Positions 8,439 through 18,593 are shown, numbered from the stretch's first letter. The stretch: DNA of 64,000 nt from Nannocystis exedens (GCA_945861885.1 CAMAVR010000003.1:34540-98539); one strand, 5' to 3'. Program-made: numbers and translations. The notes: a model not told the origin generated them from the letters alone.

Positions 8439-9905
8439 TCACCAGTCTGGCGTTAGTTCTTCCCAGGCTTCTGGGTTGCATACTGGGGCTTTGGGTAGGG
8501 CGGTTTCGTGGGTTGACTTTATGAATGTTTGTAGCGCTTCGGCTTGGGTTCCTTCGCCTGCGCCTATTAGGGCGTCTAGTAGGTATTCTAGGCTGTTTCT
8601 TGTTGTGCAGTTGCCTATTACTTGCATTCTTCGGTCTTCTAGGGCTTGGGACGGCGTTCGTGCTTCGTCTACTATTCCTCTTGCGAATTGGGCTCGGAAT
8701 GTTCCTGGTATGTAGCTTCCTGGCTTGTGGGCTGAGATTCTTCTCAGCTCAAGTGCTTCCGACAGATCGCTTTTGAAATCTGCTTCGTTGCTTCCGTAGA
8801 AGCGGTAGATGCGCGGTTTTCCCATCCCGATCTTTTGTACTTGTTTTAGGGCTGCCGCGGTGCCGGCTGCTTGCGCCGCCGCTAGGATGTCGGCATCCGG
8901 ATCCTTGTATACGCAGTCCGATTTTGTTTCACCGCCGGCGTTGAATACCGTGATCGTGTAGGCCTGTTCCGATTTGACTCGGGGCAATCTTCTTAGCGCA
9001 CTTGGGGCGCTGTGGGCTCCTCCTACTTGTGTCCATCCCGTTGGAATGAGCACGCCAGCACGTTGAAAGCGTAATCGCAACGCGTTGAGCTCGTCCACCT
9101 TTTCATCGACAACCTTGACTAGATCGAGCGGCGCCGGGTTCTTGATCCGATCGTAGAGGTCCGCCGATTTCTCTAGCTGCCCTGCGAGAAACTCTAAGAG
9201 CTCCGCCCCTTCAGTCCCTACTTGGCTACGAATCGCGCTGAATATCCGCACGGTGCGCGCCAGAAAACGCTGCGCGTGCCCTGTCGACCCACCGTCAAAC
9301 CCGGCTCCGATCGATGAACCAAGCAGCTCGCGATAGCGACCGTAGTTTGGATCGCGCAAATGCGTCTGAATGAGAGCTCCGAGGTCGGAGTAGAATTTGT
9401 GAATCGCGCTGATGGTCGCGATGTGTCGATGCCCCGGTTCGTACGTCATCAGCAGCGTTTGGAGCCCTGCTAGCGCTTTTTCATACCGCTCGCTCAAAGC
9501 CTCCACTTCGCCTCTATCGTATGCTCCCAGCGCGGCCACGTTCATGAGGCGTTCCGATGCCGATAAGAAGACGATTTCAAGTCTCGGCGAATCGCCATCG
9601 ATCCCGAGCGCCAGCCGTCGTCTCGCACGCCACACTTTGGCCCCGTTGCGGCGATACGGTGCGCCGACGAGACCGTTTGGTTCGACGTCGACGACCTCAC
9701 CCTTTTTGAGCGCTGCGAGTCGCTCTAGAGACAGATCGGTATCCGCATCGCTCAGTCGTTCGTCGAGAAGCGCTCCGCGATAGACACCGTTGGTCGGCGC
9801 CAACTCGCGGTAACTTGAGGACTCTTCGCGCTCATCAATACTCCCCGCGCAGCCAAAACCGGCGAAAACGACCGGCAGCGCGAGGGCAAAATAGACACTC
9901 TTCAT
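8439..9905 (-). CDS. hypothetical lipoprotein (488 aa), no recognisable family
   Basis: ATG at 9905 gives MKSVYFALALPVVFAGFGCAG, a lipobox. It is the last gene of the 18593..8439 minus-strand cluster, 88 nt after the SctQ-like gene. Confidence 0.6.
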   Translation of the reverse strand: MKSVYFALALPVVFAGFGCAGSIDEREESSSYRELAPTNGVYRGALLDERLSDADTDLSLERLAALKKGEVVDVEPNGLVGAPYRRNGAKVWRARRRLALGIDGDSPRLEIVFLSASERLMNVAALGAYDRGEVEALSERYEKALAGLQTLLMTYEPGHRHIATISAIHKFYSDLGALIQTHLRDPNYGRYRELLGSSIGAGFDGGSTGHAQRFLARTVRIFSAIRSQVGTEGAELLEFLAGQLEKSADLYDRIKNPAPLDLVKVVDEKVDELNALRLRFQRAGVLIPTGWTQVGGAHSAPSALRRLPRVKSEQAYTITVFNAGGETKSDCVYKDPDADILAAAQAAGTAAALKQVQKIGMGKPRIYRFYGSNEADFKSDLSEALELRRISAHKPGSYIPGTFRAQFARGIVDEARTPSQALEDRRMQVIGNCTTRNSLEYLLDALIGAGEGTQAEALQTFIKSTHETALPKAPVCNPEAWEELTPDW

Positions 9906-9993
9906 TGTTGCGAACTCCATCCGGTAACAATGAGTGACGATGCAAGGCATGCCACGTTACAATTTTGCTGAGCCGCGTTTGAGAGGCTTGCTG

Positions 9994-17800: not shown

Positions 17801-18593
17801 CGCCGCATATCTTGACGAAGATCTGATTGAATCCGCGCTCGAGCGTGACCCCGGCGGCGAACCGATCGGCATCCAAGTTGCGATACTTTTCGTCGCGAAT
17901 CACTTCAACGCCGTTCCACCAGACGCGCATCGCCCCCGCGCTGCCGCTCCAGAGCGAGATTCGCCGCGCCGGTGCGCTTTTTCGAACGTCGTGCACAAAC
18001 GCCGTCGCGTAGGCGCAGATCGATTCAGACGGGCGCAAAAAACTGCCGATCGGAAACCACCCGTATGGCGACACTTGGGGAACGTTGCGCCAATGCACAG
18101 GCCGCTCTTTCCCCTCGTAATTGCGCGACAAATCGATCGGTTCGAGCTGCTCGTGTTCGGGGGCGAACGGCCGCATGAGCCCCGACTTCCCCTCGTTGTC
18201 GAACGGGCCTACGACGAGCCAGTCCGAGACAAATCCAAGCTTCGCGATCGCCTGTTTTGCCGCATCAAAGTTGCCGCGTCGCCTTTGCGCATAGGCCGAC
18301 AAAAGTCCGGCATAAGCGCGCACAGGGGCAGAAAACGTACGGCTATCGCGCACTTCGCGAAGAGCACGCTCGACGGCATCGGCTTCGCCAAAATCCCACG
18401 CCTGCCACATTCGCCGGAGAGCGACGTACACTTCCGGCCCACGCGCGCCTCTCAGCTCGCCCTGAAGTTCGCTAAATTCGGACGAATAGGCGGGAAGAGC
18501 CGAGGCGGGTGCGTGGCCCGCAAGAGCAACCCCCGTTAGAAGAGCCCCAATGAACGCGATGGCTCGAGACGCGCGAGAAAACGGAAAAATCAC
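14871..18593 (-). CDS. secreted TPR-repeat / transglutaminase-like cysteine protease family protein
   Basis: ARGFGDCKDKASLLVTMLKAAGVDATMVLL..FDHAIAYV..YLDGT gives a Cys-His-Asp transglutaminase-core triad (Cys codon at 15798..15800). The central region is long and TPR-like. The GTG at 18593 gives a canonical signal peptide (M)IFPFSRASRAIAFIGALLTGVALAGHAPASA. Alternative starts are ATG 18665 and GTG 18737. Confidence 0.75.
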   Translation of the reverse strand: MIFPFSRASRAIAFIGALLTGVALAGHAPASALPAYSSEFSELQGELRGARGPEVYVALRRMWQAWDFGEADAVERALREVRDSRTFSAPVRAYAGLLSAYAQRRRGNFDAAKQAIAKLGFVSDWLVVGPFDNEGKSGLMRPFAPEHEQLEPIDLSRNYEGKERPVHWRNVPQVSPYGWFPIGSFLRPSESICAYATAFVHDVRKSAPARRISLWSGSAGAMRVWWNGVEVIRDEKYRNLDADRFAAGVTLERGFNQIFVKICGDEQSPTFSLRIAAADGAPDSQIRVDTAPRDSRLLPPRAAPGRASFKQSGPPFGAVQWFERQLKENASATREPYARYLQLTQGDDPAVHLARELANKAVAERPTIGRLLLAGELAENRNQRVDFIERAEALVKPSTSKSDSLATLLARAIHVRGGPTWRDSIPYFDRVLQRDRDNIAATLARIELYSEAGMRATAVSFGQAALARKPRTAALIRAMNDLLQEMNRTAEARALADRYAAIRFDDASLMRAHADLAIAQHKPSEAKRWLALLVAANPDNTSVLNAAARAYATLGDRPHAIATLREALAIAPEDTDLMRALADEYGFAGDSDDQVKLLRRIVELKPQLTDVRDYIAHTEPAKELADEKYARSSAEFLKLRNEPAAGRLRRNFVQLHVTTVFPNGLASRFHQVVFQPLSEAAAIDARQYSFGYEVDAQSVQLRVARVYRASGEIDEAVETGESDTNDPSVNMYTSYRAYVVRFPRLQAGDVVELQYRIEDVSPRNAYADYFGEVVPLQSSEPIAFAEYVLLTPKERAFYFNHPRLPGLKKSVEEESERRIYRFEAQNVPPIEQEPMQPAYSELVAQVVVSTYKSWDDMDRWYWGLIRDQFVPDDALRERVRALTHGLVTEDEKVRAIYDYVVQKTRYVALEFGIFGIKPYRTVQTFARGFGDCKDKASLLVTMLKAAGVDATMVLLRTGMRGRIDPDPASLSVFDHAIAYVPSLNLYLDGTAEFTGSRELPSMDRGAFAMQVNQGVPKLVTLPEPPASDSVQRKEMKVALEADGAAVINLQIDVTGASAPSYRSRYHAVATREQRFQEDIASSTGFAGASVTNVTASDLDDVEKPVMIGAHVEVPAYARRDGDSLTAPIGPGEFLSRQYASLKARKEDVRIQALTTIENDTTVQYPSGMHAVTLPTSREETSRFGTVRVQVESTPTSIHSKTTVAMTAPRISPADYPEFRAWCERADRALGQRLGLAVDSN

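Follow-up and report, generated by a model that had tools for sequence, protein, structure and literature searches.

Within a stretch of 64,000 nucleotides (nt) from Nannocystis exedens (GCA_945861885.1, CAMAVR010000003.1:34540-98539; the whole of it is called the window hereafter), we found a gene whose 376-amino-acid (aa) product, to judge from its sequence and predicted structure, is a genuine SctQ-type homologue, with a FliM-like N-terminal domain followed by tandem SpoA1 and SpoA2 domains. SpoA/SctQ scaffolds are usually taken as diagnostic of flagella and injectisomes. The evidence supports a cytoplasmic SctQ-type scaffold that is under purifying selection, lies outside any type III secretion system (T3SS) locus, and is genetically associated with exported envelope proteins. 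Recruitment to a role other than type III secretion is the best-supported reading of this gene, though an unproven one. The literature that we searched on SpoA or SctQ in myxobacteria, on DUF3857 combined with transglutaminase domains, on a Sorangium T3SS and on orphan FliN proteins does not describe this module.

The SpoA gene is one of four densely packed genes on the minus strand (8439-18593), whose open reading frames (ORFs) and spacing are as a first-pass annotation of the window had given them:

18593..14871, minus strand: giantA, 1240 aa, GTG start
14846..11121, minus strand: giantB, 1241 aa
11124..9994, minus strand: SpoA (SctQ-type) gene, 376 aa, TTG start
9905..8439, minus strand: predicted lipoprotein gene, 488 aa

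The two giant genes are 24 nt apart, giantB and the SpoA gene overlap by 4 nt (the TTG start of the latter sits within the TTGA that terminates the former), and 88 nt lie between the SpoA gene and the 488-aa lipoprotein gene. One database entry places the start of giantA at an upstream ATG (18665), which gives a product of 1264 aa.

Domain architecture of the SpoA protein and a predicted internal start

The classification of the 376-aa product as a SpoA-domain protein, made in the first-pass annotation, is borne out by profile searches. Pfam FliMN_C (PF01052) matches residues 306-375 (E=1.9e-14, 53.7 bits versus a cutoff of 23.8), and the best NCBIfam model is SctQ (TIGR02551), which aligns residues 182-374 to model positions 114-299 and spans two SpoA-sized units, SpoA1 and SpoA2. 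Two other models, PRK08035 and PRK08158, give 20-24 bits (cutoffs 223-230). Together with an AlphaFold2 (AF2) model built on 11 homologues (predicted local distance difference test, pLDDT, 72) and Foldseek comparisons, these searches delimit the following parts of the gene:

11080..11124, minus strand, residues 1-15: N-terminal peptide, MIRSFPWHRLPRTSR, predicted to be disordered (AF2)
10570-11082, minus strand, residues ~15-185: FliM-middle/CheC-like alpha/beta domain (AF2 and Foldseek)
10285-10530, minus strand, residues ~199-280: SpoA1, beta domain (AF2 and Foldseek)
minus strand, between SpoA1 and SpoA2: linker, disordered in the AF2 model
10253..10240, minus strand: internal Shine-Dalgarno (SD) sequence and start, AAGGAG at 10253-10248, 5-nt spacer, ATG at 10242-10240 (Met295)
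9997-10209, minus strand, residues 306-376: SpoA2 (Pfam, AF2 and Foldseek)

The order of FliM-like N-domain, SpoA1 and SpoA2 is that of SctQ (SpaO, Spa33, YscQ, EscQ/SepQ). Among structures of the Protein Data Bank (PDB), the top Foldseek match is a FliM(SPOA)::FliN fusion (4yxb, over 178 columns), followed by whole FliM in C-ring structures, FliY, FliM middle domains (target-normalised template modelling scores, TM-scores, of 0.55-0.61) and CheC/CheX. Both the FliM middle domain and CheC/CheX can be overlaid on the N-domain. A profile search against the PDB retrieved FliN, YscQ-C and HrcQb; in sequence, SpoA2 is nearer to FliN, with 64 bits for the Thermotoga maritima protein and 40 bits for YscQ-C. 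FliM and FliN, however, carry one SpoA domain each in separate genes, whereas two are joined here, and the LSQxEIDALL peptide by which FliM binds CheY is absent from the SpoA protein, with no flagellar genes nearby. Within the family, SpoA2 is strongly conserved (many positions at 90-100%), and G121 is the sole near-invariant residue of the N-domain. No conserved Glu/Asn position matching the CheC-type E-x2-N motif was seen in the N-domain in the family alignment, and comparing the profile with single E. coli SepQ and FliM sequences gave nothing informative outside SpoA2.

The N-terminal peptide carries a motif of the family's own, FPWxxL, with F5 conserved at 77%, P6 at 100%, W7 at 79%, L10 at 91% and R15 at 82%. 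It resembles the APAR peptide of FliH (LPWKTW), in which W7 and W10 clamp the thumb of FliN, the resemblance being one of motif only. The FPWxxL peptide could permit self-assembly without SctL.

A conserved internal SD sequence and ATG lie just ahead of SpoA2, as they do for Spa33-C, SpaO-short and YscQ-C. In the window, the linker at this site reads ggggggAAGGAGcagcgATGgac, with an SD of canonical form, and translation from Met295 is predicted to yield an 82-aa isoform consisting of SpoA2 only. Of 84 distinct family genes, 74 encode a Met 54-67 codons ahead of the invariant ARGELV motif, and 62 of these 74 Met (84%) are preceded at -18 to -5 by an SD-like 4-mer (GGAG, GAGG or AGGA), while the background for the same 4-mers is 13% over the remaining codon positions and 16% over the remaining internal ATGs (binomial p ~4e-43). 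The position matrix has its maximum at G-G-A-G in positions -10 to -7 before the internal ATG, the Met column is conserved at 87% versus a linker average of 40%, and the SpoA gene of Pendulispora albinea has the same internal SD and ATG. Part of the SD signal could be compositional, since GAG at -9 to -7 is also a Glu codon and the linker is acidic; despite this caveat, a genuine internal start is favoured by its fixed position and by the conservation of the Met. From the sequence, then, the SpoA protein is probably made as two isoforms, one of full length and one of 82 aa. Alternative translation of sctQ into full-length and SpoA2-only isoforms is described for Spa33 and SpaO in two papers (PMC4832279, PMC13059759), and the SpaOc isoform in a third (PMC4443714). 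Since dual isoforms are documented for these proteins, a hallmark of SctQ is kept in the sequence of the family.

Gene neighbourhood and the exported giants

A genomic scan of one genome per GTDB species gave at least 301 relatives of the SpoA gene, and the best 80 of these all belong to Polyangia (Polyangiaceae, Labilithrix, and metagenome-assembled genomes, MAGs, of Sandaracinaceae). A word-indexed search gave 22 relatives at 29-35% identity, and a profile run exhaustively against 1.84 billion representative sequences gave 629 clusters at 50% identity (E<=1e-30), the top 150 matches all being full-length. The module is also present in the cultured P. albinea, which has a complete genome of 12.2 Mb (CP089984.1, module at 11,090,114-11,113,914), and on the long contigs CAWDXG010000004.1 (5.7 Mb), CAWGVN010000001.1 (3.8 Mb) and CAVSWE010000004.1 (2.7 Mb).

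Type III secretion or flagellar genes do not accompany the SpoA gene; unlike sctQ, it does not share its locus with sctK, L, N, V, R, S, T, U, J or D. The absence of any sct or fli core gene from the 64 kb, claimed in the first-pass annotation, holds, because Pfam scans and tblastn gave only unrelated genes: some 45 other large ORFs of the window have unrelated functions only by Pfam, and 23 E. coli flagellar proteins and T3SS proteins of the locus of enterocyte effacement found nothing in the window by tblastn, with no match listed for the SpoA gene of the window; the FliN query did match the SpoA genes of 62 related loci. A T3SS cluster close to the locus was sought as well, and none lies at the edge of the window; within 10 kb of 88 related loci, no T3SS or flagellar core gene was found. 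The only ATPase matches, FliI/EscN-like and 6 kb downstream in two loci (L033 and L078), turned out to belong to an F1Fo operon, with the ATP synthase subunits b, delta, alpha and gamma. In the literature, Abby and Rocha found Myxo-type T3SS loci in Cystobacterineae only, and two later comparative studies found T3SS homologues chiefly among Myxococcales and Myxococcaceae and not among Polyangiales bins. The label "type III secretion protein Q / FliN" that databases attach to these genes is not evidence of a T3SS.

What the SpoA gene does lie beside, in most genomes, is the pair of giants. Gene neighbourhoods were compared by tblastn of the window proteins against 84 loci, and the block was counted on the 59 loci whose sequence extends 9 kb or more upstream; greedy ORF clustering gave some spurious antisense ORFs in high-GC loci, and all neighbourhood counts rest on tblastn. 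Both giantA and giantB lie upstream of the SpoA gene, on the same strand, in 49 of the 59 loci (~83%), with identities across loci of 40-57% for the giants and only 25-35% for the SpoA protein. The adjacency is therefore not peculiar to one strain, and of the conserved four-gene block that had been proposed, the giantA-giantB-SpoA part stands, whereas the 488-aa lipoprotein has no homologue elsewhere. The three genes stay together where both flanks change (in the window, in the group of locus L004 and in a group flanked by mglBA), and the gap between giantB and the SpoA gene is at most 12 nt in the window, in P. albinea, in L032 and in the L004 group. In one locus (L054) the giants lie downstream of the SpoA gene, yet mglBA still adjoins giantA.

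As the first-pass annotation had predicted, the partners of the SpoA gene in the window appear to be exported, their sequences giving a Sec-type signal peptide for giantA and lipoprotein-type signals for giantB (lipobox IVGC) and the 488-aa protein (GFGC, a less canonical lipobox). These signals are conserved for the giants: a signal peptide is found in 39 of 42 giantA homologues, and a hydrophobic N-terminus in 50 of 51 giantB homologues, 38 of which have a lipobox. The giants are paralogues at 18.6% identity; giantA contains TPR, DUF3857, Transglut_core and DUF3858 domains by Pfam, and giantB contains TPR and a weak DUF3857 match. In the AF2 model of giantA (pLDDT 84), an N-terminal helical part is followed by a beta-sandwich (~81-244, numbered on the trimmed sequence), a TPR superhelix (~273-573, same numbering) and the C-terminal 600 aa. 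For the latter, the best Foldseek match is a Parabacteroides putative protease (3KD4, E=1.4e-24, target-normalised TM-score 0.75). The candidate catalytic residues of giantA are:

15798-15800, minus strand: Cys932 of giantA
15669-15671, minus strand: His975 of giantA
15630-15632, minus strand: Asp988 of giantA

In an alignment of 95 giant sequences, none of the 43 giantA sequences departs from this Cys-His-Asp triad, while all three positions are replaced in all 52 giantB sequences, so that giantB would be a pseudoenzyme. The invariant triad of giantA, its loss in giantB and the conserved export signals therefore point to an exported enzyme together with a membrane-anchored dead paralogue. With putative proteases of the BDI_1141/3KD4 type, giantA shares the succession of DUF3857, transglutaminase-like domain and DUF3858 and the intact triad; unlike these, the giants add some 570 aa of N-terminal beta-sandwich and TPR superhelix, and form an obligate pair of active and inactive paralogues. 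NlpI-Prc and LbcA-CtpA are pairs of a TPR-lipoprotein adaptor and a periplasmic protease. To these the giants offer a functional analogy only, with a membrane-anchored TPR lipoprotein (giantB) and a soluble exported hydrolase (giantA); LbcA comes at rank 50 among the TPR structural matches of giantA in Foldseek. The proteases of these pairs are S41 serine proteases, in contrast to the transglutaminase-like cysteine protease predicted here, and the adaptor is in our case a dead paralogue of the enzyme.

Several other genes recur around the SpoA gene. A single tight operon, as the window suggests, is not the rule but a minority layout: a gene for a secreted TPR protein of ~210 aa lies on the opposite strand just upstream of the SpoA gene in 54 of 84 loci, mostly between it and giantB. 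A class-I methyltransferase gene is found immediately upstream of the SpoA gene in 26 loci (median ~18 nt before the start; in L001 the ends of the two genes overlap). The tightest conserved partner is a gene for a lipoprotein of ~185 aa, which follows the SpoA gene in 66 loci; in about 50 of them its ATG and the SpoA stop share a 4-nt overlap. Comparison of this small lipoprotein with SctJ, FliO, SctL, SctK, SctD and FliF by hhalign gave probabilities below 1% in every case, and we rejected it as a divergent form of any of them. The window contains neither the TPR gene, nor the methyltransferase gene, nor the small lipoprotein gene. In one MAG, a 500-aa lipoprotein with a VWA domain is encoded between giantB and the methyltransferase-SpoA pair (L003:7783-9285, plus strand).

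In the window, the slot taken in relatives by the ~185-aa lipoprotein is filled by the 488-aa ORFan. This protein had no match in Pfam, NCBIfam or PDB searches, no homologue in the 84 related loci, no match but itself among 5.8 billion proteins and no profile similarity to the ~185-aa lipoprotein, and we therefore do not count it as a member of the module. Its gene occupies the lowest-GC stretch of that part of the window (0.566 versus ~0.61) and has a strong negative AT skew. A scan for promoters and terminators between the SpoA gene and the 488-aa lipoprotein gene found sites no more frequently than in shuffled sequences, and none of the four proteins matched the PADLOC models of anti-phage defence.

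Further out, the genes downstream are in most loci those for the small lipoprotein, an aminotransferase and CcmF; in the L004 group YggS and an M10 peptidase follow the SpoA gene. Genes for CcmF/CcmH, for a zinc-ribbon protein and for a secreted protein of 425 aa, then dnaN and recF, come after the module in the same order at L001:13745-21078 and in many other loci; the module may therefore typically sit in a strongly syntenic region close to the replication origin. On the other side, an mglBA operon lies divergently beside giantA in 22-27 Polyangia loci. It encodes a Roadblock/LC7 protein (MglB) and a Ras/Arf-like GTPase of 195 aa (MglA), 82-100% identical between loci, and is absent from the window; examples are:

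L035:106-1219, minus strand: mglB-mglA
L004:941-2022: mglB-mglA

Possible roles of the orphan scaffold

Because the SpoA protein is conserved in a class reported to be without injection machines, beside exported giants, it probably serves another use. We propose a T3SS-independent SctQ-type scaffold, exapted as a cytoplasmic hub that is tied functionally or regulatorily to an envelope module; we regard this proposal as about evenly poised between right and wrong. The scaffold would be vertically inherited in Polyangia and encoded away from the T3SS export gate and ATPase, and its two isoforms would assemble into a cytoplasmic oligomer by analogy with SpaO, Spa33 and YscQ. The envelope module would comprise the giantA protease with its TPR arm, the dead giantB and, mostly, the small secreted TPR protein and the ~185-aa lipoprotein, with giantA and giantB most likely forming a periplasmic, membrane-anchored complex of adaptor and protease (or cross-linking enzyme). 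We infer that both isoforms are made, that the scaffold oligomerises and works with the neighbouring envelope proteins, and that no T3SS is encoded elsewhere. Every structural hallmark of SctQ, the internal start among them, is kept in hundreds of lineages of a class reportedly without either machine, and the family would therefore clearly exemplify the survival or exaptation of a sorting-platform protein outside type III secretion. Three questions become testable: the function of the SctQ/SctQ-C module by itself, the ways in which parts of the T3SS were lost or reused in Myxococcota, and the role of the very large, well-conserved transglutaminase-like envelope proteins of Polyangia.

A number of observations weigh against a hub working with the giants. 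The TIGR02551 score of 52.6 bits falls below the trusted equivalog cutoff of 100.8. Unlike its conserved neighbours, all of which are exported, the SpoA protein carries no signal peptide, and the block encodes no linker spanning the inner membrane, which makes topology the weak point of the proposal. Nine of the 59 loci (L020, L026, L030, L034, L037, L049, L064, L080 and L083) have no giants within 10 kb; conversely, on a 9.9-Mb contig (L091:8937-14475) giantA follows UbiA and precedes an overlapping 208-aa gene, with neither giantB nor the SpoA gene within 10 kb, so that giantA can exist without its usual partners. Since an opposite-strand gene often separates them, giantB and the SpoA gene are usually not co-transcribed. 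Part of the neighbourhood conservation may be inherited gene order, because CcmF, dnaN and recF are syntenic too. Lastly, our judgement that a T3SS elsewhere in these genomes is unlikely draws on the literature and on the local scans of 10 kb and 64 kb.

A rival explanation is a T3SS-independent scaffold that has nothing to do with the giants, their adjacency being inherited gene order; we consider this explanation possible, though on the unlikely side. The partners of the SpoA protein would then be the translationally coupled small lipoprotein, the divergent TPR protein and the methyltransferase, or else cytoplasmic signalling proteins such as FHA proteins or the MglA-MglB polarity switch. 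The opposite-strand TPR gene, the methyltransferase gene placed immediately before the SpoA gene and the 4-nt overlap of the small lipoprotein gene all speak for it, and the small lipoprotein gene is still present in six of the nine loci without giants. So do the FHA kinase encoded upstream of the SpoA gene in L049, the FHA proteins near distant SpoA genes in L088 and L089, and the syntenic position of both mglBA and the housekeeping genes. Yet the giantA-giantB-SpoA block stays intact where both of its flanks have changed, in four lineages or more giantB and the SpoA gene either are coupled in translation or lie 5 nt from each other, and the window has lost the small lipoprotein, TPR and methyltransferase genes while the giants were kept.

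Among the loci without giants, the genes sampled around L026, L030, L034, L049 and L080 include no T3SS genes and are of housekeeping type or, in L049, encode an FHA kinase (L049:8090-9838, plus strand), a Ser/Thr kinase with an N-terminal FHA/Yop-YscD_cpl domain directly upstream of the SpoA gene. Yop-YscD_cpl is the fold of the cytoplasmic domain of the T3SS protein SctD. Genes for FHA/zinc-ribbon proteins, PilZ and a T2SSE ATPase flank those of more distant SpoA proteins from other lineages (L088:6748-9034 and L089:915-3176; proteins P0020 and P0021); since these distant genes adjoin FHA, PilZ and T2SSE genes rather than T3SS genes, orphan SpoA proteins may be a wider phenomenon in this group of lineages, and further classes of SpoA system without a T3SS may exist.

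A more elaborate form of the hub proposal, which we hold to be rather unlikely, is an unrecognised envelope apparatus of Polyangia, in which a T3SS-derived SctQ/SctQ-C scaffold would self-assemble without SctL and the ATPase, with giantA, giantB and the small lipoprotein in the periplasm. The FPWxxL peptide would perhaps dock on the SpoA1-SpoA2 unit of a neighbouring subunit. A link to cell polarity or gliding is possible, because mglBA flanks the block in many genomes.

That the gene is instead a satellite sctQ, providing an extra or alternative sorting-platform subunit to a T3SS, or to a needleless Myxo T3SS*, encoded elsewhere in the genome, seems to us improbable. The architecture and internal start are exactly as in working SctQ proteins, and scattered T3SS loci are known in Chlamydiales (PMC3459982). 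The two comparative studies, however, place T3SS homologues outside the Polyangiales bins, no T3SS core gene was found in the window or near the 88 loci, and the family is only 25-35% identical internally and scores below the SctQ equivalog cutoff. It further departs from SctQ by its occurrence in a class reported to be without T3SS, by its own FPWxxL peptide and by its exported envelope neighbours.

The Myxo T3SS is the earliest-branching injectisome lineage. In Myxococcus xanthus, the needleless Myxo-type T3SS* (whose sctQ is MXAN_2445) resembles the present case in belonging to the same phylum and in being a derivative without canonical parts, but Myxo loci retain the export apparatus, ATPase and inner ring, whereas only the SctQ-like gene is found here. 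Comparing the system by its description, we find it plausible that the orphan evolved from it. The remaining alternative, that the gene is left over from an ancestral T3SS or flagellum, is decaying and has no present function, would account for an orphan gene of low overall identity, but it is very hard to reconcile with full ORFs of constant length in hundreds of lineages, a strongly conserved SpoA2, and a conserved internal start, N-terminal motif and translational coupling to neighbours.

Other genes of the window

Two genes divergent from giantA were identified by Pfam:

18704-19621, plus strand: UbiA-family prenyltransferase
19563-20387, plus strand: Rce1-like CAAX/CPBP protease

UbiA and/or CAAX-protease genes lie upstream of giantA in ~17 loci and in P. 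albinea, and the window belongs to the same subgroup. Right after them in the window comes an ORF of 862 aa without Pfam match and of lower GC content (20420-23008, plus strand; 0.549). The remaining Pfam assignments of the window include PPDK, chorismate synthase, a two-component system, shikimate dehydrogenase, XseA, DsbD, GlyQ, an RND pump, a SNF2 helicase, PGM, ABC transporters, FtsEX and peptidases. Directly downstream of the four-gene block lies a divergent pair of DUF4360 paralogues (6468-7301, minus strand, and 7503-8198, plus strand). The minus strand also encodes two large proteins with RCC1 repeats (RLD beta-propeller), one of 750 aa at 31383-33635 and one of 1280 aa at 57373-61215.

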